Shown piece by piece: positions 38,880-53,800 of a stretch of 64,000 nucleotides of DNA. The stretch spans positions 3,923-67,922 of the forward strand of contig JAOUKV010000014.1 in the NCBI GenBank assembly GCA_029882355.1, read 5' to 3'. The notes below the pieces were generated by a model that was not told where the DNA came from, made no database searches, and worked only from the letters and a program-made list of their open reading frames with translations. The translations under genes and the position numbers were made by a program. Numbering within the stretch: position 1 is the first letter of the stretch; the number at the start of each line of letters is the position of its first letter. Source of the stretch: Gammaproteobacteria bacterium (GTDB lineage Bacteria; Pseudomonadota; Gammaproteobacteria; SZUA-229).

Positions 38880-40067
38880 ATGGAAATAATGCAGGGTGAA
38901 CGTAAGCTTAGTTTTGAATTTAATGGTAATGCTAGTGAATATTTTAAAATATGGATAGTAAATATTGCACTATCTATTGTTACTTTAGGCATTTATTCGG
39001 CCTGGGCAAAGGTTAGAACTAAGCGCTATTTTTATGGCAACACTACGCTTGATGGTTCTAGCTTTGAGTATCATGCTGATCCACTGAGTATTCTTAAAGG
39101 TCGTTTAATCGTGCTTGCAGTGATTATCGTCTATATGTTTGCCACTCAGTTTGTACCAATGCTTGAAGCGGCATTTATACTAATTTATCTGGTTGCCTTG
39201 CCATGGATGATAGTCAAATCGATGCAATTTAATGCGCGTAACTCCTCATATAGAAATATCCGTTTTGATTTTGAGGGCACATTAAAAGAAGCCGCAGTAT
39301 TATTTATCGGTGTAGGCATGCTAACCATTGTTACACTTGGTCTGGCAACGCCTTACTTCATAAAACGCTTCAAACAATTCTCCATAGAAAATAGTTATTT
39401 TGGCACGACACCATTCAGCTTTAGTGCTACTACGGGTGATTTTTATCGTATTTATTTAAGGGCAATGATTATTCCGCTGGTTATTGCTGTTATTGGTATT
39501 CTTGCAGCTATCGCGATTCCGGCTTATCAAGCTGTTAATTCTCCGCAGTTACCAACGCAGCAAGTAGAGCAGGCGCAGGTAATGACGCCAGAGCAAAAAC
39601 AGGAAGAAATGCAACGTCAGATTGATGAAATAACAGCGAATGCAAATATGCAGAGTAATGCCGGTAGTCAGGGTAATGTTCAGGCAGAGCTTGAGGCGGC
39701 GGCTGGCATGGCCGCAGCAGCAACCTTTGGAATTACTATGGCATTATATTTATTGATAGGCATTTATATACAGACGCGTACCGCAAATCTTGTGCTTTGT
39801 AGCACAGCCCTGGAAGAACATGAGCTAGTTAGTACGTTGCGTGTGCGTAATATGTTTTATATTTATGTGACAAATATCATTGCTGTAATTGTGAGCCTGG
39901 GATTATTGATTCCATGGTGCAAGATACGTTTAACTCGCTATAGACTAAATAATCTTTCGTTAGTAGCGCAGGGCGATATCGATGGTTTTATTGCTAATGA
40001 GCGAGATAATGTTAAAGCTACTGCAGGTGAGTTCGCTGATGCCTTTGATCTTGATATGGGTTTTTAG
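38880..40067 (+). CDS. YjgN/DUF898 family membrane protein
   Basis: F.G...EYF.IWIVN..LSIVTLGIYSAWAKVR...YFYGNT, RN..YRNIRF.F. Confidence 0.92.
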   Translation: MEIMQGERKLSFEFNGNASEYFKIWIVNIALSIVTLGIYSAWAKVRTKRYFYGNTTLDGSSFEYHADPLSILKGRLIVLAVIIVYMFATQFVPMLEAAFILIYLVALPWMIVKSMQFNARNSSYRNIRFDFEGTLKEAAVLFIGVGMLTIVTLGLATPYFIKRFKQFSIENSYFGTTPFSFSATTGDFYRIYLRAMIIPLVIAVIGILAAIAIPAYQAVNSPQLPTQQVEQAQVMTPEQKQEEMQRQIDEITANANMQSNAGSQGNVQAELEAAAGMAAAATFGITMALYLLIGIYIQTRTANLVLCSTALEEHELVSTLRVRNMFYIYVTNIIAVIVSLGLLIPWCKIRLTRYRLNNLSLVAQGDIDGFIANERDNVKATAGEFADAFDLDMGF

Positions 40068-40070
40068 TAG

Positions 40071-41078
40071 GTGAAGAAAACGCAGGCAGAGTATTATGAT
40101 GGCGTAAGCTCAAATTCAACACCGGTTGCACTTGAGCTGCATGATGATGGCAGTCTATGTATTAGTGGTAAAGGCGTTAGCAAGCTCTGCTTACTAAATG
40201 ATGTTAGTTTTAGTCCAAGGCTGGGCAATATCCCCAGAGTAATTACGTTGCCGGACAATGCAACCTGTCATGTGCATGATAATGATCTTATTGATGCCTT
40301 TCTGAAAATGCACAAAAAGGGTGATGCCTCATCGATAATTCATTTGCTTGAAAGTCGAATTGTATTTGTTCTGGCAGCAGTCCTGTTTACCCTGTTTTTT
40401 TCATGGGGCATGTTTGCTTATGGTGTTCCCTATTTTTCCAGGCAGATTGCTTTTAACCTGCCCATCGAAGTAGATCGTTCCTTAGGGCAGGGTACGCTTG
40501 AAGCAATGGATAAGATTGTATTTACCGATTCAGTGATGGCAGTAGAAAGGCGGCATCGACTAGCCAGTCGATTTGATGAAATGAAATCGAGTGTTGAAGG
40601 TGCGCAGGATTATAAATTGCTGTTCAGGCATGGTAATGAAATTGGTGCTAACGCATTTGCCTTACCGTCGGGCATTATCGTTGTGACAGATGAGCTGGTA
40701 GAGCTGAGTGAACATGATGATGAAGTCATTGCTGTGATAGCTCATGAGATAGGGCATCTGGCATACAGGCATTCTGTGCGTATGGTATTGCAGAATTCGG
40801 CAGTGGCTGTTTTGGTCTCAACAGTTACCGGAGATCCTTTTTCAACTTCATCAATAGTTGTTGCGCTGCCAACATTGCTGGCTAATGCCAATTATTCTCG
40901 AGAGTTTGAGCGAGAAGCTGATAATTATGCGTACCAGTATTTAACGACTAACGAAATGCCGCTGGATTCATTTGCTATTATTCTTGAGAAAATCACAGAG
41001 TCAGAAACGGAGCGTGGAATTGAAAATTATCTTTCTTCTCATCCGGTGACCAGTGAGCGAATAGGGCGTTTTAAATAG
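40071..41078 (+). CDS. M48 family metallopeptidase (YjgN partner)
   Basis: ANAFALP.G, AHEIGH (HExxH), YSREFEREAD, SSHP. Confidence 0.92.
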   Translation: MKKTQAEYYDGVSSNSTPVALELHDDGSLCISGKGVSKLCLLNDVSFSPRLGNIPRVITLPDNATCHVHDNDLIDAFLKMHKKGDASSIIHLLESRIVFVLAAVLFTLFFSWGMFAYGVPYFSRQIAFNLPIEVDRSLGQGTLEAMDKIVFTDSVMAVERRHRLASRFDEMKSSVEGAQDYKLLFRHGNEIGANAFALPSGIIVVTDELVELSEHDDEVIAVIAHEIGHLAYRHSVRMVLQNSAVAVLVSTVTGDPFSTSSIVVALPTLLANANYSREFEREADNYAYQYLTTNEMPLDSFAIILEKITESETERGIENYLSSHPVTSERIGRFK

Positions 41079-41116
41079 TGGTCTGATGCCAGCATTAACT
41101 GACAAAATCAATCATT

Positions 41117-42916
41117 ATGAATGACCGAGATGATTCGCTAACTGAAATATCTGGAGCAAGGCAGTCCTCGCATCATGTAAGGGTTCAGGCTGAGTTGATT
41201 AATCTTTTGTACCAGCAAACCAGAACAGTCCTATTTGGTTTAACGGCCGCAGCCACCGCCGTCGCCATTATTTTTTATAATAATGTGCCGAATGAGCAGG
41301 TCATAATTTGGATAACCATTGTCTACTGTTTGACAATTATTAGGTATCTATTTGCAAGGCAATTTAAATCTAGAGAAAGAGATCCAGACGATACAATAAA
41401 GTGGGGTTGGCAATTTGTATTTTTTGCCTTTCTTTCGGGTTGTACGTGGGCCGCAGCTACTATGGTGTTTTTCACGCCAGAAAATATGCAGCTGTTTATT
41501 ATTCTAACCCTGATCATTATTGGTCTGACGATAACATCCATGGCCGCACTGTCCGCTTTTCTCTGGGCTTATTATGCTTACGCTATCCCCGCGATGTTGC
41601 CGATTATTTGGCGATATATGAATATGGGTGAACAGGCGTACAATGTTTTCGGTATATTGATGCTAATATTTATTGTTACCTTGTTTCCCTTTGCAAAGGT
41701 AAATCATAGAACATTGCGACAATCTATCATGCTTCGTTTTGAAAATATTGACCTTGTTCAGCAACTGACAGAGCAGAAAGAAAAGGCAGAACAAGCAAAA
41801 AAGGTTGCAGAAGAAGCAAATATCGCAAAAACAAAATTCCTTGCTGCAGCTAGCCACGATTTGCGCCAGCCTTTACATGCAATAGGTTTGTTTTTAGGTG
41901 CATTGGAAGATCGAGTCGAAAAAGAAGATCAAAAATCAATCGTACAGAAAATTCAAACATCAAGTCATGCATTGAGTGACTTACTAGATTCATTGTTAGA
42001 TATTTCAAAACTTGATGCCAATGTTGTGCAGGTGGAACCAAAGTTTTTTTACATTCAAAACTTATTTGATATCCTTGCGCATGAGTTTGAGACCCATGCA
42101 TCTGAAAAAAATCTCCGTTTAAGATTTGTAAAAACAAACATATGTCTGGAAAATGATTACGCTATCCTTGATCGTATTCTTCGTAATTTAATATCAAATG
42201 CCATTAGATACACAAATAAAGGTGGTGTAGTTATTGGTTGTCGTCGTCATAAAGGCAGTATATTGCTGGCTGTTTATGATACCGGCATTGGCATTCGTGA
42301 TGAAGAAATGAAGGGTGTATTTCAAGAATTTCATCAGCTGCATAATCCCGAAAGAGATAGGTCAAAAGGTCTTGGTCTCGGCCTTGCAATTGTTAAGCGT
42401 ATGGCTCAATTATTAAATGCGCCACTGCTAACTGCGTCTGTTCCAGGCAAAGGATCTATGTTTGGTCTGATTATTTCCCGAGCGTCATCGATTCAAGAAC
42501 TAGAAGTGGTATCAAATATCGATGTAAGCCAGACGTATTTTGATAATAAACTAATTCTGATTGTTGATGATGAAATGGAAATTCGTGACAGCCTAACAGA
42601 GTTGTTACTAAGTTGGGATTGTAAGGTTATTGCAGCGGCCTCTGGTGAGGAAGCGGTGCAGGCATTGAGTAACGGCAAGGTGATACCGGATATTATTCTG
42701 GCAGATTACCGTTTGCGCGATAGTGAAACAGGCAATGAGGTTATTCGTAAAATACAATCTATGTGTACGAATCACACAATACCGGCGATCATTATTACAG
42801 GAGATACCGCGCCTGATCGAATTAAAGAGGCAAATACGAGTGGCTACAAGATTCTGCATAAGCCTGTATCACCCAATGAGCTTCGATTACTGATGGCTGG
42901 GATTTTGTATCAATAA
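41117..42916 (+). CDS. Hybrid sensor histidine kinase (multi-TM, HisKA, HATPase, REC)
   Basis: About 6 TM segments; ASHDLRQPL; NLISNAIRY, DTGIG and GLGLGL boxes; C-terminal receiver domain. Confidence 0.93.
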   Translation: MNDRDDSLTEISGARQSSHHVRVQAELINLLYQQTRTVLFGLTAAATAVAIIFYNNVPNEQVIIWITIVYCLTIIRYLFARQFKSRERDPDDTIKWGWQFVFFAFLSGCTWAAATMVFFTPENMQLFIILTLIIIGLTITSMAALSAFLWAYYAYAIPAMLPIIWRYMNMGEQAYNVFGILMLIFIVTLFPFAKVNHRTLRQSIMLRFENIDLVQQLTEQKEKAEQAKKVAEEANIAKTKFLAAASHDLRQPLHAIGLFLGALEDRVEKEDQKSIVQKIQTSSHALSDLLDSLLDISKLDANVVQVEPKFFYIQNLFDILAHEFETHASEKNLRLRFVKTNICLENDYAILDRILRNLISNAIRYTNKGGVVIGCRRHKGSILLAVYDTGIGIRDEEMKGVFQEFHQLHNPERDRSKGLGLGLAIVKRMAQLLNAPLLTASVPGKGSMFGLIISRASSIQELEVVSNIDVSQTYFDNKLILIVDDEMEIRDSLTELLLSWDCKVIAAASGEEAVQALSNGKVIPDIILADYRLRDSETGNEVIRKIQSMCTNHTIPAIIITGDTAPDRIKEANTSGYKILHKPVSPNELRLLMAGILYQ

Positions 42917-42952
42917 GACTGGATAGTATAAGTTTCGTTTGGTGCTGTGAAT

Positions 42953-43579
42953 CTAGACCATGCCATTTTTCGTTGCATACTGAACGGCCTGTGTTCGATT
43001 GCTGGCATTAAAGGCTTTTAATATTGCTGCAACATGTGAACGCACGGTTGACTCGGTCAGGTCTAGCGCTTTACCAATATCTTTATTTGATTTACCTGTT
43101 GCTAGTTCGATTAGTACATCATTTTGACGAGACGTTAAATTATGATTGGGACTAACTGACGGACTATCTAAAGCAGCGCTATTTTTTTGCAGTATCTGCG
43201 GAGGAACATAGGTGCCGCCAGCAATAATCAATTGCAGGGCATTGAGTATTATTTTTGATGGCGATGATTTAGGAATATAACCACGAGCGCCGTGTTGCAG
43301 CGCCTGTTCAACCATGCGATGGTCTTCTGTGCCAGAAAGCACAACTATTAACGAATCGGTGGCTTGTTGCTGGATGGCAGTTAATGCTTCAAGGTGGCTT
43401 ATTCCAGGTAAGCCAAGATCCAGCAATATCAAATCAAGATCACTGTGCGTATCCATAATATCTATTGCCGATTCATAGCTTCCAGCCTCAAAGGGCTCAA
43501 TAGTAGTATTTAACCCACTCAGCACCAATAGCAGGCCGTCACGAAATAGTGCATGGTCATCAATTATTAAGACTTTCAT
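42953..43579 (-). CDS. NarL/LuxR family response regulator
   Basis: IDDH.LFR.G, LLDL.LPG; HTH LTSRQ..VL....GKSNK.I...L...ESTV.SHV. Confidence 0.95.
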   Translation of the reverse strand: MKVLIIDDHALFRDGLLLVLSGLNTTIEPFEAGSYESAIDIMDTHSDLDLILLDLGLPGISHLEALTAIQQQATDSLIVVLSGTEDHRMVEQALQHGARGYIPKSSPSKIILNALQLIIAGGTYVPPQILQKNSAALDSPSVSPNHNLTSRQNDVLIELATGKSNKDIGKALDLTESTVRSHVAAILKAFNASNRTQAVQYATKNGMV

Positions 43580-43627
43580 CTTGTATCCACTTCTAATCTT
43601 ATTCTTAAAAAAGATAATACCAGCTTC

Positions 43628-43687
43628 TTAGGCCATAAGGCTTAAGCTTTTTGGCTAATTTACAGCGGGCTGGCTCGAATACATACT
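43628..43687 (+). promoter_or_regulatory. Putative operator plus sigma70-like promoter of lipoprotein gene 1
   Basis: TAGGCC-ATAA-GGCTTA overlapping TAAGCT-TTTT-GGCTAA, then -35 TTTACA (43659-43664), 17 bp, -10 CATACT (43682-43687); same layout recurs at 48227-48284. Confidence 0.7.
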
Positions 43688-43771
43688 TAAATCAGTATTC
43701 GAAGTGGATACATTGGGGTTTTTCCACAACAAAAGTATCCACGGATAGATAATAAAAAGCAGGTGACTTCA

Positions 43772-46372
43772 ATGAATTTAGTAAAACAATATATCTTAAT
43801 TTTTCTTGTGGTATTAATGACGGCTTGTGGCGGCGGTGGGGATAGTGCTCCAGCAGCTCCTGCGCCAGCACCAGATATAACCGCGCCCTATGTGTCCAGC
43901 GCTATTCCAACGAGTAGTAGCGTGGTAAGCACACTAACTTCGGTTGATATTACTTTTAGTGAAGATGTCACAGGGGCAGATGTTTTTGCTAACTATTCCC
44001 TGTCAGGTATTGGAGTGGGTACTCTGATATTGAATTCTGTTACTTATGCTAATCAGGTAGCAACGCTATCGATTACTGGTTTGGTAAATAATGGAACAAT
44101 AGATATTGGTTTGAATAATGTGGCTGATCTGGCAGGTAATGTATTACCTGTCTATACGTTAACCATTTCTGGAACGACGACGAGTCCAACGCAAACAGCT
44201 GTACCAGCCTCTGGTACTAATAACCTGACGTCATTAAGTACGGTAGAAATTACTTACTCTAAAGAGACGCAGAATGCTACCGACCCTGCTAATTACATTT
44301 TATCAGGTTCGGCGTCAGGTACGTTGAGTCTTGATACTGTTGTATTAAAAACAGGCGCTACCGATACCTATGTGCTGACTTTTAGCGGTACACCGACTGA
44401 TGGTATTTTAAATATTGATATTACTGGCATAACTGACCTGCTGGGTAATGCATTGGCTGGTACGAATATTAATTACACCTTTGATATAACGGCGCCTCAA
44501 ATATCTACAACTGTTCCCGCAAATGGGGAATTATCAAATGCGGCACCAACGATCATAACAGTCAATTACAGTGAAGCTGTGAATGGAAAAGATTTATTGG
44601 CTAATTATGTTCTTTCTGGAACGGCCCTTGGTGGAGTAACCATCACGAATGTGCTGTCTGCATCAAGCCAGTCATCAGCTGTATATCTAAGTGGAGCAGC
44701 TGTTGAAGGATCATTGATATTGACCATCAATAATATTACCGACCCTGCGGGCAATGCGCTGACAGGAAGCAATGCAATAACAATAAATATCGACCCCGTT
44801 GCACCAACGCGCAGCTGGACACCTACTGAAGGTGCAGTTTTTAATGCGATATCTACCGCAACGGTAGCTTATTCAGAACCCGTATTGAATGGAGATAATA
44901 TTGCTTCATATAATTTAGTCGGAAACTCTATAGGTACTTTAGCTATAGCTAGTATCACCAACACCCCTGCTGGTAGTAATACTTATGTTCTAAATTTTAG
45001 CGGTAGTCCAGTAGAAAATATTACTTATAAAGATGTCACCATACTACCTGGTTATCCCTCAGTAACAGACCTGGCGGGAAATACTATATCGAGCCAGATA
45101 CATTGGTTTATTGATCAAACTTTACCAACAATATTGTCATTTGAACCTGCTATTGGCGCTGTTGCGTTAACTGAGCTGAGCAACATAAGGGTAGAATTTT
45201 CTGAGGCTATGTCAGCGGATGTCACAGATCCAACGAGTTATGCATTAAGTGGTGCAGGTGTTGGTAGTCTAACCGTAGGTACGCCAGTGCTGGTCTCAGG
45301 CAACATTTATGATATTCCTCTAACAGGTGCGCCAGGTGTAGGTGATGTGACATTATCAATCGCACCATCAGATGCTGTTGGTAATTCTGCGGTAGAAAGT
45401 ATTACCTATACCTTTGGTGCTCAAGCTACCAGTATCGTCGCTAAAACTTCGGGTGTCGCCAGTGATTTAGTGAGTATTGCAACGGATGGCGGCAGAATAA
45501 TTGCGATAGCGACAGACAGCGCTAACACTATTCAAAGTATTGATGGCGGTGCCAACTGGGGTGCTATTGGTGCATTACCCTGCGGCACAGGTCTTGATGA
45601 AATTATATATGCTGGGGGGCAGTGGACGACAATTGGTGGTACGAATGGAAGTTATACGGCTGCTTGTAATAGTGCAGATGGCGCTACCTGGGTAAATGCT
45701 AGTGCCGCTAGTGGCACGATAACGACAACCTATCTTGATTTTGCAGGCATTGTGCATGATGGTACCAAGTACGCAGCTATAGGTACAAATCCTGCCAGTA
45801 CAAATCCTGGGAGTATGTGCATGCACTCTTACAGTAATGATGCTGCGGCATGGACAGGTCTGGCTTATTGCCCTACAACAACCAACCCATACGCTGTAAG
45901 CACTAAGCCAAATGGTATTCATTTTGTGAATGGTCATTACTTTATGACAGGCTCAAATATTTTGTTGGGTCCTACTCTGTCTCAAAAGACGGATATAACA
46001 ACAACGGCCTTCTGGACAAAAAGAGCGGCGTTTAACGGTGCTTATAAGATTATTCATGATGGAAGCAATTATCTGGTAGCAGGCACACAAGGTGGTAAAG
46101 CGAGCATCGGCGTTTCTGCCGATCTGGGTACGTGGAATTATATTTTAGTGTCAGATATTAATACGACCTTATATGACATTGCTTATGACGCAACAGGTGG
46201 GTATGTAGCAGTTGGAAATGCTGGGCTAATTCTCACCAGTTCTGATGGTTCAAATTGGATTCAACAGATTGCAGTAACCAGTGCTAATTTGAATAGTGTA
46301 TTGTGGGATGCAGCGGCAGCCAACTGGATTGTGGTTGGTAGTGGTGGCACTGTTTTGACTGTGACGCCATAA
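43772..46372 (+). CDS. Large surface lipoprotein: about 5 Ig-like (Big_5-type) repeats plus beta-propeller-like C-terminus
   Basis: Lipobox LMTAC-GGGG; repeated (F/Y)SE.V...NY.L.G and D.AGN motifs; BNR-like S.DG..W motifs in the C-terminal third; start ATG 43772 after AGGTGA. Confidence 0.82.
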   Translation: MNLVKQYILIFLVVLMTACGGGGDSAPAAPAPAPDITAPYVSSAIPTSSSVVSTLTSVDITFSEDVTGADVFANYSLSGIGVGTLILNSVTYANQVATLSITGLVNNGTIDIGLNNVADLAGNVLPVYTLTISGTTTSPTQTAVPASGTNNLTSLSTVEITYSKETQNATDPANYILSGSASGTLSLDTVVLKTGATDTYVLTFSGTPTDGILNIDITGITDLLGNALAGTNINYTFDITAPQISTTVPANGELSNAAPTIITVNYSEAVNGKDLLANYVLSGTALGGVTITNVLSASSQSSAVYLSGAAVEGSLILTINNITDPAGNALTGSNAITINIDPVAPTRSWTPTEGAVFNAISTATVAYSEPVLNGDNIASYNLVGNSIGTLAIASITNTPAGSNTYVLNFSGSPVENITYKDVTILPGYPSVTDLAGNTISSQIHWFIDQTLPTILSFEPAIGAVALTELSNIRVEFSEAMSADVTDPTSYALSGAGVGSLTVGTPVLVSGNIYDIPLTGAPGVGDVTLSIAPSDAVGNSAVESITYTFGAQATSIVAKTSGVASDLVSIATDGGRIIAIATDSANTIQSIDGGANWGAIGALPCGTGLDEIIYAGGQWTTIGGTNGSYTAACNSADGATWVNASAASGTITTTYLDFAGIVHDGTKYAAIGTNPASTNPGSMCMHSYSNDAAAWTGLAYCPTTTNPYAVSTKPNGIHFVNGHYFMTGSNILLGPTLSQKTDITTTAFWTKRAAFNGAYKIIHDGSNYLVAGTQGGKASIGVSADLGTWNYILVSDINTTLYDIAYDATGGYVAVGNAGLILTSSDGSNWIQQIAVTSANLNSVLWDAAAANWIVVGSGGTVLTVTP

Positions 46373-46400
46373 ATATTTTTACAAAAAGAGAGAAGTGAGT

Positions 46401-47246
46401 ATGGATAAAATAAAATTGTACGTCGCATTATCACTGTCTGTATTACTAGCAGGCTGCAGTTTTGGCAAAAACACGGTAGATGTAGAAGCCGTGAAGAAAG
46501 TAAAAACGGTAGCAGTAATTATGTACAGCGTGCCAGAGAAAATTGTGTATAGATCTGATGCGCGAGATAACTCAACCAGTGTTCTTGGTGCGTTAGCAGA
46601 AACCTCAATTGGTAATAATGGCGCACAGGCTGCAGAAGCAGCGATAAAAACATTTACTGAAACATTACAGAAACAAAATCTATCTTTTACGGTTATGTCG
46701 CATTCAGATGTTATTTCTAATCCAGGTTTTAGTGCTTTATATATACCTGCAAGCGCTGTTGATAAACAGTTGGATGAAAGTTTGTTAGGTAAGTCACTTA
46801 GTTTTCTGGGTAGCTTAAGTGGTGGTGCAGATTATACAGCAGCCGCGCCAAATAAAATGAATCAGTATGGTTTAGTAAAAGCATGGCATGGTGATACAGC
46901 GTTAACAAATAAACCTGCCGAACTTAAATATATTAAAAATGCGATTGAAGCACTGAAAGTAGATGCTGTATTAGTTGTAAATGATATGGGTTTCTCCTTT
47001 TCCTGTGAAGCGTGTATTGGTTCAAATGGTGTAGCATCAACAGGTTCTGCTTTTAATGCGACATTGGTCAGTCGTTTCGGCTCTATAATGAATATTCGTG
47101 AATGGTTTGCTACAACGGATGAGCAGGGCGTAATGGCCATGGGCATTGTCGATCCAACAGAGCATGAAGCGTTATTTGAAGAGCATGGTCGTAGAATGGC
47201 TGAAGTGTTTGCATCGGCAGCTAAAGAAAGTCTCATGGTGAAATAA
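46401..47246 (+). CDS. Hypothetical lipoprotein
   Basis: Lipobox LLAGC; CEAC motif; 28 bp after the upstream gene. Confidence 0.8.
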   Translation: MDKIKLYVALSLSVLLAGCSFGKNTVDVEAVKKVKTVAVIMYSVPEKIVYRSDARDNSTSVLGALAETSIGNNGAQAAEAAIKTFTETLQKQNLSFTVMSHSDVISNPGFSALYIPASAVDKQLDESLLGKSLSFLGSLSGGADYTAAAPNKMNQYGLVKAWHGDTALTNKPAELKYIKNAIEALKVDAVLVVNDMGFSFSCEACIGSNGVASTGSAFNATLVSRFGSIMNIREWFATTDEQGVMAMGIVDPTEHEALFEEHGRRMAEVFASAAKESLMVK

Positions 47247-47270
47247 TAAATTGGGAAGTAATGTAGGACT

Positions 47271-47304
47271 AGAATAAGGTTGCGTAAATACACGACCTTA
47301 TTCT
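47271..47304. terminator. Intergenic hairpin (terminator or mRNA stabiliser)
   Basis: AGAATAAGGT...ACCTTATTCT 10-bp inverted repeat, weak U-tract. Confidence 0.5.
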
Positions 47305-47382
47305 GGCGCTACATTTAAAATATGATGGGAATGAATTCTAATAAGATAGATTTACGACAATGGTCGTAATAGGAGAGTAATT

Positions 47383-47985
47383 ATGAAAAAGTTAATAACA
47401 GTAGCATCAGCCATATCGGCATTAATATTAATCAATGGTTGCAGTAGCGACAGTGCCACCACCACTGCTGCTGCAGGCTCACCAATATCTGTTATCACCA
47501 TATCTGGATCAACAGTGAGTCTTGATGGTTCATACAGCACAGGTTGTGTAGACCGTACTCTCGAGGGAGGAAGTGGTTGGTATAAGGATGACATGACCAT
47601 TGCTGGCTCTACATTGAATACCAGTTCAGCTGAATACAGCGACATCGCCTGTACTGTCGAAACGGGTGCAGGTACTGTTGAAGCCACACTGGCTGTAGGC
47701 ACTGATTCCGCTATTACTGGCTGGATTGGAGCTGGCGACGCTGGCGGAACATTTATTCCAACAGCATCTGATGGTTCTGGTCCATTAGGTTTGACGGAAG
47801 CAGTGACCATGCTTACCGCTACCGTCGTTAGCGGTACGGGTTGGAATGCCAGCTTACCTGCAGGCACCGTCATAGATCTCTTTTACGTTGTGGATGATAC
47901 CGGTACAAACAAAGTACTTTATGAAGACGATGATGCGTTTGGTGGCAGCACTTTAGCAAACAATATTGCAAGTACTCAGTTATAG
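47383..47985 (+). CDS. Hypothetical Thr/Ser/Gly-rich lipoprotein
   Basis: AGGAGA RBS; lipobox INGC; beta-rich composition with two further Cys. Confidence 0.8.
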   Translation: MKKLITVASAISALILINGCSSDSATTTAAAGSPISVITISGSTVSLDGSYSTGCVDRTLEGGSGWYKDDMTIAGSTLNTSSAEYSDIACTVETGAGTVEATLAVGTDSAITGWIGAGDAGGTFIPTASDGSGPLGLTEAVTMLTATVVSGTGWNASLPAGTVIDLFYVVDDTGTNKVLYEDDDAFGGSTLANNIASTQL

Positions 47986-48000
47986 ATCTGGTTGACTATA

Positions 48001-48039
48001 AAATAGTCATGCCGCTGTATGTGGCATGGCTATTTTTTT
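48001..48039. terminator. Intrinsic terminator after the 47383 lipoprotein, overlapping the stop codon of the duplicated hydrolase tail
   Basis: AAATAGTCATGCCGC-TGTAT-GTGGCATGGCTATTTTTTT. Confidence 0.8.
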
Positions 48040-48208
48040 GTTTTAAACCAATTATCTATTTCGTTAGTAACGAATTCAGTATCTGTTTTGTTAGACAAAA
48101 GATGATCAGAATTCTCCAAAGTAATAATTTCTGACTCGCCTTTTACCCAGTCGTTTAATTCTTCAGCATTTTTTTCACTCACCAATGCATCGTTGTTCAC
48201 GCTAAATA
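48030..48208 (-). pseudogene. Orphan 3' fragment of the alpha/beta hydrolase gene at 51130-51882
   Basis: Encodes FSVNNDALVSEKNAEELNDWVKGESEIITLENSDHLLS...; 48094-48208 matches 51194-51308 at 109/115 nt (offset 3100). Confidence 0.92.
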
Positions 48209-48226
48209 ACAGTTCTAGTTGCAACC

Positions 48227-48284
48227 TTAGCCATAAGGCTTAAGCCTTTAGTTGGTATACAACCTGTTCACGTATGGGCATACT
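48227..48284 (+). promoter_or_regulatory. Second copy of the operator plus promoter, upstream of lipoprotein gene 4
   Basis: TTAGCCATAAGGCTTAAGCCTT contains the perfect palindrome AAGGCTTAAGCCTT (48235-48248); -35 TATACA (48256-48261), 17 bp, -10 CATACT (48279-48284). Confidence 0.7.
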
Positions 48285-48391
48285 ACAAACATTAGAAAAG
48301 ATAGGGTAATAATTGATGCATCTCATGATGCTGGAATGTCGATTATAAGCTCAAAGATTGTAAAAAATTAACTTAGCAAAGAGTAAAAAAA

Positions 48392-50995
48392 ATGAATTTA
48401 ATAAAGCTATATGCGGTAATTATTGTATCTGTATTAGTCACAGCCTGTGGTGGTGGCGGTGGTGCATCTGCACCTGCGACGGTCACTTATGCTGTCACGG
48501 CCAGTGCTGGCGCGGGTGGTGCTATTAGCCCGACCAGTAGTGACGTTGATGATGGCGGTACCGTTAGCTTAACGGTTACACCTGATACGGGTTACAGCAT
48601 TGCTAGCGTCACTGGCTGTGGTGGTGGTCTTACAGGTAATACTTACACGACTGCGGCAGTAACCGCTGCCTGTATCGTTGATGCAACGTTCAGCCTTAAT
48701 AGTTATACCGTCAGTGCTACTGCGGGAACAAATGGTGCTATCAGTCCAGCTAGTTCAATAGCTGATCACGGTGCGACGACAAGTTTTACAGTAACACCGG
48801 ATGCTAGTTTCAGCATTGCTAGCGTCACTGGCTGTGGTGGTAGTCTTACAGGTAATACTTACACGACTGCGGCGGTAACCGCTGCCTGTACTGTTGATGC
48901 AAGCTTTGCTTTAAATACATATACGGTCAGCACGGTTGCTGCAACTGGCGGTGCTATTAGCCCAGTTAACCCCATTGTTGATCACGGTACGATAGCTAGT
49001 CTCACAGTAACGCCAGAATTAGGTTATATCATTGGTACGGTGACGGGTTGTGTTGGTACGCTGGTGGGTGATACCTATACTACTGGAGCAGTTACTGCGG
49101 CTTGTACCGTTGATGCCTCATTTATTCTTGTTGGAAGCAATACTGTCACTGCGAATGCAGGACTGAATGGTGTTATTAGTCCCGCTTCAATTGACGTTAC
49201 CGATGGGCTAACAACTGGGCTGACAGTAACCCCCGATACGGATTACCTTATTGATACCATAGTTGGATGTGGTGGTACGTTGGTGGGTGATACTTATACT
49301 ACTGGTGCGGTCATTGCGCCCTGTGCCGTTGATGTAACGTTTATTTTTGATGGAACTCATACAGTAACGGCGAATGCAGGGGCAAACGGTACTATCACTC
49401 CGGCAATTGTTGATGCTATTCCAGACACGAGCGTTGATTTTCAAATCACCCCGGATGCTGATTACAGTATTGATAGTGTAACTGGTTGTGCTGGCTTTCT
49501 TGTTGGGCCTACTACGTATAGAACATCGGCTATAACAGCTGCTTGTACCGTTGATGTCACTTTCATCAATAATGTACCTGTGGCTGTAGCGAAAAATGTT
49601 GTTTCGGAAGTGCTTTCCTCTGTGGAACTGGATGGTAGTGCCAGCTCTGACGAGAGCGCTTTGACATATAGTTGGAGTGTTGTATCAGTAGCACCTGGTA
49701 GTGCGGTAATAGCATTAGTGGGTGACACGACCGCTAACCCAACTTTTACCCCCGATGTTGAGGGCGATTATCAGTTTACGCTGGTAGTTAACGACGGCGT
49801 GCAGGACAGTACACCCATCACAATAACGGTAACCGCGATATCAGCAGGTACAGCATTTTATAGCGCAGATGCTTTTCCAATCGACCTTCCTCTCGGCGCC
49901 ACCATTACTTCTACCATTGATGTGAGCGGTGGACCTGTGGCACTCTCTTACGTTCGAGTCTATATGGATCTTAGTCATACCTGGGATGCAGACGTGATCG
50001 CAACGCTAACCTCGCCAACGGGTACGGTGATTGATTTGGTCAGAGAAGAAGGTGGTTCTGCTAGTGATTTTAGTGTTACTACTTTTGATGATTTTTTCCC
50101 AACCACTTCGATTATTGATGGAGTTGCACCTTTTAATGGCCTGTTTTATCCAGAGCAGGCATTGAGCACTTTCAATGGTGAAGCCGCAGATGGCATCTGG
50201 ACTCTCACAGTCACGGATCTTTTTGACTTGGCTGACTCAGGCGTGCTGAATAGCTGGCGAATTGTTTTTCCTGATAGTGTTCCAGTCATGGCCAAAGTTG
50301 GTGCTGATCAGTTGGTGGCTGCTGGTGATATGGTGCAGCTGGATGGAAGCACTAGTGCTGGTGATCTAATAAGCTTTAGCTGGCAGCTCACCGCTATGCC
50401 TGCGGGAAGCGCTGCGGTATTAAGTGATGCAGGCATTGCTAACCCCACGTTCACTGCAGATTTGCCAGGTGAGTATCTTGCAGAGCTGACGGTGACCGAT
50501 GGTGTTGATGTTAGTACGGCTGTTGTGAGTGTTGTAGCGCAGCAGCCTTATGATCCTGCGGTGGCAACAACTTATAACAGTACGGATACACCAATCGCGA
50601 TACCCGATAACGATATCGTGACCGGTGCAAGCTCCAGCATTCTGGTGAGTGCAGACGTAGTATCGCTTTCGGGTGTGGCTGTTAGGTTGAGTATTAGCCA
50701 TACATGGTCTAGCGATCTCAATATCTACCTGGTCTCACCCGCGGGAACTCAGATTGAGTTGAGTATTGGCAATGGAGGCAGTGCTACTGATGCTTACATC
50801 GCGACAGGATTTTCTGATCTGGTGGCTAGTTCTATCATTGGTGCGCCTACACCTTACACAGGGTATTTTCAGCCAGAGGTACCGCTGAGTACATTGATAG
50901 GTGAAGATAGCAATGGAACATGGCAGTTGCTGGTCTTTGATGGTGCTGGTGCTGATACAGGCAACATAGAAAGCTGGGATTTACATATCTGGTAA
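48392..50995 (+). CDS. Large surface lipoprotein: 5 InlB-B-like repeats, 2 PKD-like domains, 2 proprotein-convertase P-domains
   Basis: Lipobox LVTAC-GGGGG; about 72-aa repeats TV.A.AG..G.ISP...TVTPD..Y.I..VTGC.G.L.G.TYTT.AVTAACTVDA.F; LDGS.S...W...P.FT.D..G.Y; SHTW..D....L.SP.GT and G.W.L.V.D....D.G...SW. Confidence 0.85.
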   Translation: MNLIKLYAVIIVSVLVTACGGGGGASAPATVTYAVTASAGAGGAISPTSSDVDDGGTVSLTVTPDTGYSIASVTGCGGGLTGNTYTTAAVTAACIVDATFSLNSYTVSATAGTNGAISPASSIADHGATTSFTVTPDASFSIASVTGCGGSLTGNTYTTAAVTAACTVDASFALNTYTVSTVAATGGAISPVNPIVDHGTIASLTVTPELGYIIGTVTGCVGTLVGDTYTTGAVTAACTVDASFILVGSNTVTANAGLNGVISPASIDVTDGLTTGLTVTPDTDYLIDTIVGCGGTLVGDTYTTGAVIAPCAVDVTFIFDGTHTVTANAGANGTITPAIVDAIPDTSVDFQITPDADYSIDSVTGCAGFLVGPTTYRTSAITAACTVDVTFINNVPVAVAKNVVSEVLSSVELDGSASSDESALTYSWSVVSVAPGSAVIALVGDTTANPTFTPDVEGDYQFTLVVNDGVQDSTPITITVTAISAGTAFYSADAFPIDLPLGATITSTIDVSGGPVALSYVRVYMDLSHTWDADVIATLTSPTGTVIDLVREEGGSASDFSVTTFDDFFPTTSIIDGVAPFNGLFYPEQALSTFNGEAADGIWTLTVTDLFDLADSGVLNSWRIVFPDSVPVMAKVGADQLVAAGDMVQLDGSTSAGDLISFSWQLTAMPAGSAAVLSDAGIANPTFTADLPGEYLAELTVTDGVDVSTAVVSVVAQQPYDPAVATTYNSTDTPIAIPDNDIVTGASSSILVSADVVSLSGVAVRLSISHTWSSDLNIYLVSPAGTQIELSIGNGGSATDAYIATGFSDLVASSIIGAPTPYTGYFQPEVPLSTLIGEDSNGTWQLLVFDGAGADTGNIESWDLHIW
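48485..49570 (+). repeat. Five tandem ~216-bp domain repeats within lipoprotein 4
   Basis: 48595-48674 and 48811-48890 differ at only 2 of 80 nt (offset 216); later copies are more diverged. Confidence 0.88.
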
Positions 50996-51038
50996 TGAAA
51001 TGTTTACCCGGGTAGGCTCGGGTTAAAGCAGTACAAAT

Positions 51039-51078
51039 AAAGCCCGCCATTCACCTGTTAGTGAGTGGCGGGTTTTTT
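51039..51078. terminator. Bidirectional intrinsic terminator
   Basis: AAAGCCCGCCATTCAC-CTGTTA-GTGAGTGGCGGGTTTTTT between convergent genes. Confidence 0.88.
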
Positions 51079-51129
51079 ATTGGCAAGCGTAAATGATTTG
51101 TGGAGTTTTAGAGTGGGGCTTTTTTCCGC

Positions 51130-51882
51130 TTACGTCAGAGATGAAAACCAGCGATCTATTTCCTCGGCGACAAAATCAGTGTCCTGTTTTTTTGACAAAA
51201 GATGATCAGAATTCTCCAAAGTAATAATTTGTGAATCGCCTTTTATCCAGTCGTTTAATTCATCCGCATTTTTTTCACTCACTAATGCATCGTTGTTCAC
51301 GCTAAATATCAATACAGGTTTACTTAATTCAGCTAGTCGTTGTTGCATATCATAGCTACGCAAATCTGCAATAAATTCTGGTTCAATTTCATAATGTTCA
51401 CCCGCGACTTCGATGCTGGAAGCGATGCCCTGTTCTAATAAAGTAAGTGCATGACCAAAGTGGTGTAGTACATGGTCGGGTTGGCTGGGTGAGGCAATGG
51501 TGGCGATGGCTTTTACTTCTTCTGTTTGTATTGCCGCTTCAAGTGCCGCCGTGCCGCCTAAGCTATGGCCAATGAGTAACTCGGGTGCCTGGTAGTGAGT
51601 GCGCAAATATTCTATTGCGGCTAATACATCGGCCACGTTAGTGCTGAAGCAGGTTTGTGAAAATTCGCCTTCACTACCGCCTAGCCCGGTAAAATCAAAA
51701 CGTAGCGTGGCATAACCTTGTTTTGCCATGTTCTTGCTAATGCGATATGTGGTGAGCGTGTCTTTGCTGCAGGTAAAACAGTGGCAGCAAATGGCAAAGG
51801 CTTTAGGTGTGCCCTCAGGCATTTCAAGTCTGGCGGCTAGTGGGTGGGTGTGACCGGGAAAAGTGAGTTTAATGCTGGGCAT
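51130..51882 (-). CDS. Alpha/beta hydrolase (N-terminal-domain type of hydrolase/OsmC bifunctional proteins, lacking OsmC)
   Basis: HCFTCSKD, RFDFTGLG.SEGEF, nucleophile GHSLG, SDHLL. Confidence 0.88.
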   Translation of the reverse strand: MPSIKLTFPGHTHPLAARLEMPEGTPKAFAICCHCFTCSKDTLTTYRISKNMAKQGYATLRFDFTGLGGSEGEFSQTCFSTNVADVLAAIEYLRTHYQAPELLIGHSLGGTAALEAAIQTEEVKAIATIASPSQPDHVLHHFGHALTLLEQGIASSIEVAGEHYEIEPEFIADLRSYDMQQRLAELSKPVLIFSVNNDALVSEKNADELNDWIKGDSQIITLENSDHLLSKKQDTDFVAEEIDRWFSSLT

Positions 51883-51992
51883 AATATAAAAGGCTTGCGA
51901 TAGTTATTTTAGATTTACATTGTACTTGAGGGTACGCCGAGTATTATAGGTGAATGTTATTTTTACCACTTTCTTATTTCTGGTGATCTCAA

Positions 51993-52388
51993 ATGAGCAA
52001 TGATTGTTTACCCGAAAACCGTATCCCCGTTATTCGAGTACCTGCCAGCCCTGCTGATGCCAATCCTGGCGGTAGTATATTTGGCGGCTGGATTATGTCG
52101 TATGTCGATGTCGCGGGAAGTATTCCTGCACTTGACAGAGCGCAAGGTGCAGTGGTAACGCGTGCGGTTGAGTCCTTTGAATTCAAGCAAGCTGTTCACA
52201 TTGGTGATTTGATTAGCTGTTACGCAAAAATTATTTCTGAAGGCCGAACTTCAATAAAGGTTGATGTTGAAGTTTATGCAGAGCGTCGAAAGGGCGCAGT
52301 AAAACAATGCATTAAAGTGACAGAGGCAGTACTGATTTATGTTGCGATTGATGAGAACCACAAACCCAGGGCCTTGCCAGCAGAATAA
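51993..52388 (+). CDS. yciA: Acyl-CoA thioesterase (hotdog fold, YciA-like)
   Basis: P.DAN..G.IFGGWIMS.VD.AG, GRTSI.V.VEV, YVAID....PR. Confidence 0.88.
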   Translation: MSNDCLPENRIPVIRVPASPADANPGGSIFGGWIMSYVDVAGSIPALDRAQGAVVTRAVESFEFKQAVHIGDLISCYAKIISEGRTSIKVDVEVYAERRKGAVKQCIKVTEAVLIYVAIDENHKPRALPAE

Positions 52389-52552
52389 TAAAATAAATTG
52401 TGGAGTATGGATTTTATACTCGAGATAAGGCTATTTTTACAGCGTTAAATTAGAACTCGCTAATGCTTAAATAAATAGACTCTTAATAACATGTGTGTTA
52501 AAAACCAACGACAATAAAAAACTAAAACTATAAATAAGATGAAACAGAGCAT

Positions 52553-53800
52553 ATGAAAATAAGAATATTGGTAATAGCGAGTATGTGTCTATCAACTAGC
52601 GCTTTTGCTGGGGGCTACCGAGTAGCGCTTCAGGGACAAAAAGCATTAGGTATGGGGCACACTGGTGTGGCAATGACGGATAGTTCAGAAGCAGTTTTCT
52701 TTAATCCGGCAGCCATGACTTTTCTGGAAAATGATATGGATGTTTCAGGTGGTATCACCTTGATTGACAGTGTCATCAAATATCAGAATCAAACAGCTAA
52801 TGTTGCAGCTGAAACAGATAATCCTATGGGCACACCCGTAAGTTTTTATATTTCTCAAAGAGAAAACGAGAAACTTTCCTACGGTTTAGGTATATATACG
52901 CCTTATGGAAATGCGGTTGAGTGGCAGAAAGACTGGGCAGGTTCACATCTGGTTAATAATATCGAACTGCATGCCATTTATATCCAGCCGACAATTTCTT
53001 ATAAATTGAGTGATGACTTTAGCGTTGGCTTTGGTCCAACGATTGTTTCTGGTTCGGTTGACTTTAATCGTAACCTGAGCACATCACTGATTGATGCTAA
53101 TGGTGATCGCTCTAACGTGACACTTAAAGCCTCTAACGTAACTGCAATTGGTTATAACGTAGGTTTTTTAGTTAAACCTTCTAATGATCTTTCAGTAGGT
53201 ATCAGTTACCGTTCTAAGGTAGTTTTAAATGCAAGAGACGAAAGCGCGGACTTTGCAAATATCCCTGCTTCATTGCAGGCGGCTTATTTTGATACCACCT
53301 TTAATGCTGATCTGGTATTACCTGCCGAGTTAACCGTGGGTGTTTCGTATAATCTAAATTCTGATCTGGTGCTGGCTTTAGATATTAATCGTACTTACTG
53401 GAGTGCATATGAGAATCTGGATGTGCAATTTAATAACGCTGCAGGCACATCTCTAAATCCTCGAAATTACAACGATGCCAATATCGTTCGCCTTGGTGCG
53501 CAATATGCAATGGGCGAAGATCTAACGTTACGTGCGGGCATGTATTTTGATAACTCACCGATTGGTGATGGCTATTACACACCTGAAACTGCACGTGCTG
53601 ATTCAGTGGGATATACCGCTGGAGCTAGTTATAAAGTTTCTAAACAGATGGAGCTGGATTTTTCATTCCTGATGTTGACGTTTGACGAATTTAACGGATC
53701 TTATGATTACTATGATCAGTCCGGGACGCTTGTATCGTTTAGTGGCGATTACGCATCTTCTGTAACCACTATTGGTTTTGGCCTTAACTACAAATACTGA
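52553..53800 (+). CDS. OmpP1/FadL family outer-membrane transporter
   Basis: Signal peptide; GGYRV.LQG....MG..GVA; FFNPA hatch motif; YTPYG; aromatic C-terminal residue. Confidence 0.88.
   Translation: MKIRILVIASMCLSTSAFAGGYRVALQGQKALGMGHTGVAMTDSSEAVFFNPAAMTFLENDMDVSGGITLIDSVIKYQNQTANVAAETDNPMGTPVSFYISQRENEKLSYGLGIYTPYGNAVEWQKDWAGSHLVNNIELHAIYIQPTISYKLSDDFSVGFGPTIVSGSVDFNRNLSTSLIDANGDRSNVTLKASNVTAIGYNVGFLVKPSNDLSVGISYRSKVVLNARDESADFANIPASLQAAYFDTTFNADLVLPAELTVGVSYNLNSDLVLALDINRTYWSAYENLDVQFNNAAGTSLNPRNYNDANIVRLGAQYAMGEDLTLRAGMYFDNSPIGDGYYTPETARADSVGYTAGASYKVSKQMELDFSFLMLTFDEFNGSYDYYDQSGTLVSFSGDYASSVTTIGFGLNYKY

Follow-up and report, generated by a model that had tools for sequence, protein, structure and literature searches.

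How can one sensor pair and one operator stay in place while the envelope proteins that they would control are exchanged? This question is raised by a locus in a 64,000-nt stretch of gammaproteobacterial DNA (the window, positions 3923-67922 of contig C3), which belongs to a 2.88-Mb assembly of 62 contigs, here called G000. The locus spans the interval from an M48 peptidase gene (40071-41078) on the left to an alpha/beta hydrolase gene assigned with Pfam (51130-51882, minus strand) on the right, and contains a hybrid histidine kinase, a NarL-type response regulator convergent with it and four plus-strand open reading frames (ORFs) with a lipobox, L1 to L4. An earlier note on this DNA had described this gene content, which the ORFs and Pfam confirmed, and had proposed a slot in which a conserved regulatory and export head is combined with interchangeable adhesin-like bodies. 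The analysis described here leads to a modified answer: with fair probability, the region is an accessory, strain-variable envelope-lipoprotein regulon.

The element that ties the locus together is a palindrome, GCCAWAAGGCTTAAGCCTTWTGG, with a 14-bp core and a length of about 22 bp including its arms, whose core ends 7-8 nt before a -35 hexamer. Operator 1 (43629-43658, core 43637-43650 plus arms) lies 57 nt upstream of the regulator start codon and is followed, 8 nt past the core, by the sigma-70-like promoter of L1 (43659-43687, plus strand; TTTACA, 17 nt, CATACT). Operator 2 (48227-48256), with a perfect 14-bp core at 48235-48248, lies within a few bases of the end of a hydrolase remnant described below, and the promoter-like hexamers of L4 (48256-48284, plus strand; TATACA, 17 nt, CATACT) start 7 nt past its core. 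A 15-mer is identical at 43633-43647 and 48231-48245. The earlier description of these modules as near-identical holds for the palindrome and the promoter geometry and is overstated for the rest, which is only loosely alike: when the upstream regions of L1 and L4 are aligned, only the palindrome, the -35 and -10 hexamers at near-equal spacing and scattered positions of the 5' untranslated region (5'UTR) are common to both.

The palindrome is rare and its occurrence is tied to the regulator. As a 20-mer with up to three mismatches it has three sites in G000 and none for a reversed-pattern control, and the 14-bp core with at most one mismatch occurs at four sites in the genome, three of which have the extended arms and lie ahead of a lipoprotein ORF each: L1, L4 and a 42-aa lipoprotein-like ORF of contig C1. 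In a scan of 40 other genomes of the family, the sole match with fewer than three mismatches is found in G002, beside the regulator orthologue and at the same position, and G002 is the only genome of that set with an orthologue of the regulator (74% identity). The palindrome was not found at up to two mismatches in the 39 family genomes without this orthologue; matches with three mismatches occur in five other family genomes. When metagenome contigs were scanned with a degenerate 22-mer, 13 stretches were returned, comprising five with kinase/regulator homologues at 50-73% identity, the C1 contig of G000 itself and one (L056) with the promoter geometry. The other six (L053, L054, L059, L062, L063 and L065) have neither an orthologous kinase/regulator nor the promoter geometry and were set aside as unrelated or chance matches. 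With L037 and G059 added, 12 modules from 9 loci can be aligned in register, in the order core, 7-8 nt, -35 hexamer (mostly TTTACA), 17 nt and -10 hexamer. All 12 precede an ORF whose product has a lipoprotein signal peptide at its start, and every aligned site outside G000 lies beside an orthologous kinase/regulator pair. The palindrome thus behaves as the operator of the adjacent regulator, which would bind it. Where the genes are divergent, the core lies, in our own reading, 31-72 nt upstream of the regulator start codon, and autoregulation is therefore likely.

Two modules lie in other surroundings. The third module of G000 (C1:17530-18561, locus L035) is unlinked to the kinase/regulator pair and has a cold-shock-like ORF divergent from it. 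Its 42-aa ORF overlaps a 261-aa ORF without a Pfam match and begins with a head that resembles the alternative head of two homologues of L1 (P0127 and P0128); this ORF may be a decapitated cargo gene. The module of perfect geometry at L056:3712-4156 is located beside a TonB-receptor fragment and an integrase/IS91-like gene pair.

The genes behind the operator, by contrast with the module, differ between close relatives. G000, G002 and G005 have the same flanks, namely M48 and kinase genes on the left and hydrolase and thioesterase genes on the right. These enclose L1, L2, L3 and L4 in G000, a 379-aa L3-type protein followed by L2 in G002, and in G005 an unrelated ORF of at least 242 aa that converges on the hydrolase, the rest being hidden by a contig break. 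Elsewhere the cargo consists of a 560-aa L3-type protein (L037), an Ig-repeat protein with an L1/L4-like head (L060) or PKD-type proteins with CGGG heads (G059 and L064, the latter known for its first ~45 residues only), and L061 has two modules, one before an L3-type gene and the other before a 1196-aa Big_2 lipoprotein. Unlike first cargos are found on neighboring tips of the regulator tree: G000 (L1), G002 (L3-type) and L060 (Ig-repeat) group together with support 83/87, and G104 (fn3 cargo) is sister to G024 and G051 (both L3-type) with support 95/95. The proposal that cargo beside the regulator is interchangeable, with the operator/promoter module kept, is thus borne out. The conserved export head and the two anchors that went with it are not: the operator-driven proteins start with at least three unrelated signal peptides, including MNLxKxY...ACGGGG and the L3-type MMKKI...SGCSSDS, and the L1 body family itself has two heads; the hydrolase is a genus-local neighbor, since outside the genus the module adjoins nirB, bioF or other genes; and the regulator is itself part of what varies. 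Comparison of the regulator-to-hydrolase interval across relatives, as the earlier note had suggested, therefore gave the expected varying cargo behind a kept operator, with flanks conserved in the genus only. In seven of the nine other genomes of the genus the kinase-regulator-cargo block was not found, the kinase being present in two and the regulator in one; in G003 the M48 gene lies directly beside the hydrolase and in G009 an upstream gene is joined to it. The whole block is an accessory one.

How such exchange may proceed is best seen at L4. Within the locus, the last 58 codons and the stop of a second hydrolase allele (48030-48225, minus strand) separate L3 from operator 2 and form the left boundary of a cassette that extends from ~48226 to ~51325 and consists of operator, promoter, L4, terminator and hydrolase 3' end. 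The duplicate (48045-48220 versus 51145-51320, repeat search D4) covers 176 nt at 85% identity. The remnant keeps the reading frame up to a stop of its own (48030-48206, 59 codons), its differences fall on codon positions 1/2/3 in the ratio 9/5/18 and its amino acid replacements are mostly conservative, so it has the look of a second functional allele and not of a decayed duplicate. The DNA of the two ends differs by 15% and their protein by 21%, close to the values between species of the genus. Identity to orthologues was indecisive as a guide to the native copy, which was settled instead by a 534-nt contig of sequencing run X2. This contig follows 47778-48206 with two differences and, after 25 other letters, continues from 51332 onwards, skipping 3125 nt. 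The 25 letters continue the hydrolase frame (by eye), and the contig therefore contains, directly next to L3, an intact hydrolase allele that ends in the remnant of the window and has no L4 cassette. The same run, whose sample and study code are other than those of the likely source, also has a 532-nt contig inside L4 that is identical to part of it. The 3.1-kb operator-L4 cassette is thus a presence/absence polymorphism among near-identical strains, and the unit delimited by a duplicated hydrolase end in the earlier note is a real insertion/deletion.

The scar fits an addition of DNA from a congener through one homologous and one illegitimate junction, a mechanism that we infer from the scar itself, and the operator variant CATAAGG, confined to G000-L1, G000-L4 and G002, points to a within-genus origin of the L4 module. 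The left junction lies in the hydrolase remnant and not in the regulator. As had been claimed, no dedicated integrase is involved as far as the locus goes: none of the nine ORFs scanned with Pfam at 40071-52388 has a recombinase domain, no integrase or transposase gene is present in the locus and its sole border repeat is the hydrolase 3' duplicate, which is not the pattern of an integrase-borne island. In G001 (L022, G001:C6), IS-type transposase ORFs and other unrelated genes occupy the site of the cassette locus upstream of the hydrolase, and the hydrolase 3' flank looks like a general insertion hotspot.

The input side of the system is a two-component pair. The kinase (41117-42916, plus strand) has Pfam HisKA, HATPase_c and Response_reg domains and the NarL/GerE-family regulator (42953-43579, minus strand), divergent from L1, has Response_reg and GerE domains, all with matches above the cut-offs; H247 and the receiver Asp columns are invariant in 10 homologues. 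Hydropathy places six hydrophobic segments within residues 35-197 of the kinase, a predicted six-helix sensor domain without a Pfam match, and the loops assigned to the periplasm by the positive-inside rule (own reading) have at most about 10 residues, in agreement with the little periplasmic sequence reported earlier. The kinase scores 374 bits against a cut-off of 400 with the NahK/ErcS C-terminal model NF041832 (residues 232-595, E 8e-112) and 281 against 1500 with the full-length NahK model NF041831, which leaves it outside NahK/ErcS by cut-off. With 116.8 bits against 250 for the NarL equivalog NF007935, the regulator belongs only to the wider GerE/NarL superfamily; it also matches the ErdR, MctR and MadR models (ErdR 109 bits against a cut-off of 390). 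Eleven Hpt matches occur in G000, none of them at the locus and one in a 132-aa frame. Kinase orthologues have 75% identity in G002 and 66% in G005, and at E <= 1e-90 members of the kinase family were found in 26 of 97 genomes from the order, where a genome can have as many as five of them. Kinase and regulator are neighbors in 14 of 14 loci on the regulator tree, and they may form a cognate pair.

More distant relatives repeat the arrangement with other repeats. In the five loci fetched for kinase/regulator homologues with a regulator of 45-50% identity, the regulator is always divergent from lipoprotein genes, and the intergenic repeats differ from the palindrome of G000. A paralogue clade (L101, L102 and L104, that is G024, G104 and G051) lacks the palindrome in its regulator-lipoprotein intergenic regions, which share a direct repeat, ATCTAGTT-n-ATTTATCTAGTT, followed by TTTTGGTCAATA; these are probably the operator of that clade. 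The corresponding region of G012 has three direct TAAGCCTTTATAAC-like repeats. G000 itself contains a paralogous kinase (C49:64842-66566) that can be aligned along its entire length, six-helix sensor included, at 37% identity and beside which the listed ORFs show no regulator or lipoprotein gene.

On the output side, all four ORFs L1-L4 have an N-terminal signal peptide ending in a lipobox Cys, read from the translations without a dedicated predictor, and none of the four has Asp at the +2 position after this Cys (likewise read from translations). Sorting to the outer membrane is thus likely and exposure at the surface would be compatible with their domains. The first and the last are the large ones. 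L1 (43772-46372, plus strand, 866 aa, LMTAC lipobox) consists of a Gly/Pro/Ala linker, Big_5 Ig-like repeats and a C-terminal Asp-box (BNR-like) domain. This C-terminal part contains five S-x-D-x-G-x-x-W motifs (by eye); an Atlas search led to PSII_BNR, Sortilin-Vps10 and DUF6242, all sub-0.9 and below the trust level, and a PDB sequence search with the last 350 aa gave nothing meaningful (best E 0.34). L4 (48392-50995, plus strand, 867 aa, LVTAC lipobox) has a stalk of five InlB B-repeats, units of 216-219 nt that match Flg_new_2 (PF18998) with 67.6 bits against a cut-off of 23.6, followed by two pairs of a K319L-like PKD/PKD_4 domain and a P_proprotein domain. Pfam finds no peptidase domain in L4 beside the two P_proprotein domains, which sets it apart from a proprotein convertase. 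The unrelated bodies described earlier are thus confirmed as Big_5 repeats versus B-repeats, PKD and P-domains, while the L1 propeller is plausible from the Asp-boxes and weak Atlas leads only. Both proteins look like stalk-and-tip binding proteins, for which an adhesive or ligand-binding role can be suggested from their domains.

The histories of the two genes differ. The L1 family is a stable one with 10 full-length homologues of 54-81% identity, and among 96 other genomes of the order L1 is present in one (G076), there followed by L2 and beside bio genes. Most homologues start with the MNLxKQY...ACGGGG head and two have a different one, so heads and bodies recombine. A comparison upstream of L2 in G000, G002, G076 and G054 revealed no homology, and no boundary of an L1 cassette can be defined. 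In run X1 a minor contig (depth 3.8) omits 43722-46268, nearly the whole of L1, with a 30-letter side and 19 other letters between, and the main X1 contigs break at both ends of this interval. The joint may represent an L1-less variant and is treated as unconfirmed because the flanking depths do not rise accordingly. L4 stands out with a GC content of 47-48%, compared with about 38-45% elsewhere in the locus, and among the best 120 database hits its domain set is found only in L4 itself and in a partial protein, P0022. The N-termini of L1 and L4 are homologous, as had been noted, with 71% identity over 69 nt (repeat family D5). Several CGGG-linker lipoproteins without the operator are encoded elsewhere in G000. 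One of them (C50:31898-39000), of 1066-1082 aa, combines roughly eight B-repeats, which share 50% identity with the L4 stalk, with another tip; it is encoded downstream of a giant repeat protein that exceeds 1282 aa.

The two small lipoproteins, for which no Pfam or NCBIfam family was matched (L3 with Pfam at E <= 0.01), were approached through their predicted folds. L2 (46401-47246, plus strand, 281 aa, LLAGC lipobox), has 55 homologues; in G076 its gene comes after L1, and in G002 and G054 after an L3-type gene. Its AF2 model (pLDDT 83.9) has a PelC/LptE/CsgG-like alpha/beta fold and matches PelC with Z 9.6 and a root-mean-square deviation (rmsd) of 3.6 A over 145 residues; it also resembles FlgT, PqiC, CsgG, LpoB and LptE, many similar lipoproteins being found at Z 7-9, and the modeled fold is a common one of periplasm-facing outer-membrane lipoproteins. 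L3 (47383-47985, plus strand, 200 aa, LINGC lipobox), with homologues in 78 representative clusters, is modeled (pLDDT 89.3) as one APCDD1-ABD/lipocalin-like beta-barrel, and its best match is ABD2 of mouse APCDD1 (Z 11.7, rmsd 2.5 A over 129 residues), described as the second, lipid-binding barrel of this protein (PMC10193966). The next matches are bacterial lipocalin-like proteins, VtrC (Z 8.0), ToxS (Z 6.5) and the N-domain of NlpE (Z 6.2). L3-type genes are the commonest neighbor of the kinase/regulator family, being present in 8 of 14 tree loci from both the operator and the paralogue clade; they were seen in G002, L037, L057, L061, G024, G051 and G054. A complex prediction of kinase residues 1-230 with L3 residues 21-200 scored 0.00 without controls and counts neither way.

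The remaining features of the locus can be listed briefly. Terminator-like hairpins on the plus strand follow L3 (48000-48036, overlapping the stop of the hydrolase remnant) and L4 (51053-51073). Between L2 and L3 lies an inverted repeat with 27-nt arms (47260-47315, repeat search I2), 81% complementary, with a 2-nt loop and no T-run after it. Rfam gave zero matches at E <= 0.1 in 40000-53000, and the long 5'UTRs of the locus thus contain no known riboswitch or leader. Dependence on Slam finds no indication, as the single DUF560 match of the genome is on contig C41, away from the locus (C41:53381-54241, L105), where the Slam-like gene comes after a gene for an acidic repeat protein. To the right of the hydrolase, contigs of runs X1 and X2 omit 235 nt (52099-52335) inside the 4HBT thioesterase gene (51993-52388), with sides of 21-23 letters, and in G002 and G001 this gene is detectable in its C-terminal part only. 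Runs X1-X3 are from the same year and habitat, possibly from one campaign.

Taken together, these data suggest the following model. A kinase whose catalytic core is NahK/ErcS-like and whose membrane sensor has six helices and hardly any periplasmic loops would signal, directly or through a separate Hpt protein, to the NarL-type regulator, a dimer of which would bind the ~22-bp palindrome, centered near -50, activate the lipoprotein gene and probably regulate its own gene. The targets in G000 would be three modules, namely L1-L2-L3, L4 and the unlinked truncated lipoprotein ORF on C1. The conserved element would be the ~60-bp operator-promoter module, behind which lipoprotein genes are gained, lost and replaced: L3-type barrels look ancestral, and large CGGG-linker stalk-and-tip lipoproteins would have been placed in first position several times. 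The 3.1-kb operator-L4 cassette would have been added at the hydrolase 3' end by homology on one side and illegitimately on the other (homology-facilitated illegitimate or Campbell-like), leaving a diverged in-frame duplicate of the hydrolase end while cassette-free strains persist.

Several points weigh against this model. The kinase has no HPt domain of its own for the step to the regulator, and the link between regulator and operator is drawn from co-occurrence and position in related, non-independent loci. The L4 hexamers were read from the sequence and missed by a consensus promoter scan, and their spacing to the operator is off by 1 nt; the L056 module has no cargo ORF behind it. No RNA runs are listed for 43400-51200. 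Placement of the proteins at the outer membrane or surface is deduced solely from lipoboxes without +2 Asp and from domain types. The empty-site allele is one low-depth contig from one run, and the depths of the X2 contigs do not add up cleanly. Finally, many of the contigs compared are short, and second cargo genes may have been overlooked.

Other readings of the same data have to be weighed against the regulon. The one closest to the earlier note holds that a fixed unit of operator, promoter and signal-peptide head is recombined onto adhesin bodies and exchanged between strains by homologous recombination at the regulator and the hydrolase. The related heads of L1 and L4 (71% over 69 nt), both behind an operator, would follow naturally from it, as would the ...ACGGGG heads on other bodies in the L060, G059 and L064 cargo, the two heads on one L1 body, the second resembling the orphan head on C1, and the cassette boundary at the hydrolase end. 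However, modules also drive unrelated signal peptides (the L3-type MMKKI...SGCSSDS and that of the L061 Big_2 protein), the operator-less CGGG-linker lipoproteins of the genome make this head type a generic one, the hydrolase flank is genus-local, the left L4 junction is in the hydrolase remnant rather than in the regulator, and most congeners miss the whole block, regulator included; we regard this reading as unlikely. A bolder version, which we hold to be equally doubtful, is a portable plug-in regulon in which the ~60-bp module, with or without a signal-peptide head, recruits arbitrary envelope bodies that are stacked beside the regulator by integrase-free recombination, with the L3-type protein as a ligand-binding co-sensor. 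If true, the set of strain-specific stalk-and-tip proteins on display would depend on a lipid-like signal from the envelope or the environment. The co-sensor part can be considered separately and is compatible with the regulon favored here: an L3-type lipoprotein would bind a hydrophobic envelope ligand and report to the loop-less kinase, the large lipoproteins being the outputs. The frequency of L3-type genes beside the pair (8 of 14 tree loci, both clades), the kinase without a periplasmic domain and the fold matches to APCDD1 (Z 11.7), VtrC (8.0), ToxS (6.5) and NlpE (6.2) speak for this role. Nevertheless, function cannot be read from a shared fold, barrels often reach Z 6-8, the pair has no visible L3-type neighbor in G059, G104 or G012, and the L3-type genes lie downstream of the operator and could equally well be plain targets, so that we consider the role a tentative and rather improbable one.

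At the other extreme, the locus could be a hypervariable island of the ordinary sort, where the two-component and lipoprotein genes are together by coincidence and the palindrome is either a repeat or a site for another factor. The hydrolase 3' flank behaves as a general hotspot, with IS-type ORFs in G001 and other junctions in G009 and G003, and the regulon model is drawn from sequence. Such a coincidence is nonetheless difficult to reconcile with the fixed distance between palindrome and hexamers in 12 modules, with the way the palindrome tracks the regulator orthologue across differing flanks and with its absence at up to two mismatches from the 39 family genomes without that orthologue, and we consider it quite improbable. 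Phase or antigenic variation of the Mycoplasma vsp/vpma kind, in which one genome switches among lipoprotein genes that share a 5' region, is suggested by the two genes with a common 5'UTR and signal-peptide region and by the two operators, which are mutual inverted repeats (I3). Against it, the nine ORFs include no recombinase, each gene has its own promoter, only two related heads are present at 71% identity, and strand-changing joints were not reported in any of four runs; we consider variation of this kind highly improbable here. The regulon with exchangeable cargo is the reading with which we continue.

Assuming that this reading is correct, its interest lies in a cleanly delimited and easily testable regulon, with one sensor pair, one 22-bp operator and few targets, in uncultured sediment Thiotrichaceae-like gammaproteobacteria. 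It would also be an example of how envelope repertoires diversify between co-occurring strains without the enzymes of mobile elements, with both the scar and the empty site visible. L2 and L3 represent lipoprotein families without a name, and of the bacterial proteins compared here L3 comes structurally closest to the lipid-binding barrel of vertebrate APCDD1.

Each part of the locus has a counterpart among known systems. The NahK/ErcS kinases and their NarL-type partners such as ErdR (NF041832, NF041830) likewise combine a hybrid kinase without HPt with a GerE-type regulator, whereas here the scores stay under the cut-offs, the six-helix sensor has no Pfam match and the presumed targets are lipoprotein genes. 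VtrC, ToxS and NlpE report to their partner signal transducers. With VtrA/VtrC, ToxR/ToxS and NlpE-Cpx the locus shares a lipocalin-like barrel, L3, encoded beside a sensor without a periplasmic domain, although this likeness is at the level of the fold only and the best L3 match is the eukaryotic APCDD1 ABD2. InlB B-repeat surface proteins have the same PF18998 stalk, and hundreds of them share 36-59% identity over about 42% of L4; their many other tips include DUF1566, beta-lactamase-like, RCC1, FG-GAP and lectin domains, whereas L4 has PKD and P-domains and is a lipoprotein with an operator dedicated to it. Homology-facilitated illegitimate recombination and Campbell-like integration are the names of the mechanisms that leave such scars, and the L4 cassette resembles their products in the foreign DNA beside a homologous anchor, the direct duplication of this anchor and the absence of an integrase. 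The vpma/vsp loci of Mycoplasma are clusters of lipoprotein genes that keep their 5' untranslated and signal-peptide regions but vary in the mature part, and they are switched within a genome by the neighboring site-specific recombinase Xer1 (PMC2268961). Unlike these, the present locus has no recombinase found beside it, an operator-promoter for each gene and heads that are 71% alike, and the variation observed in it is between strains and species. Current ideas stand after all this; the locus is of value as a well-defined new example with testable hypotheses on intramembrane-sensing kinases and their lipoprotein partners. It does not look like an entirely new type of system, but like a set of regulated envelope proteins whose members can be exchanged.

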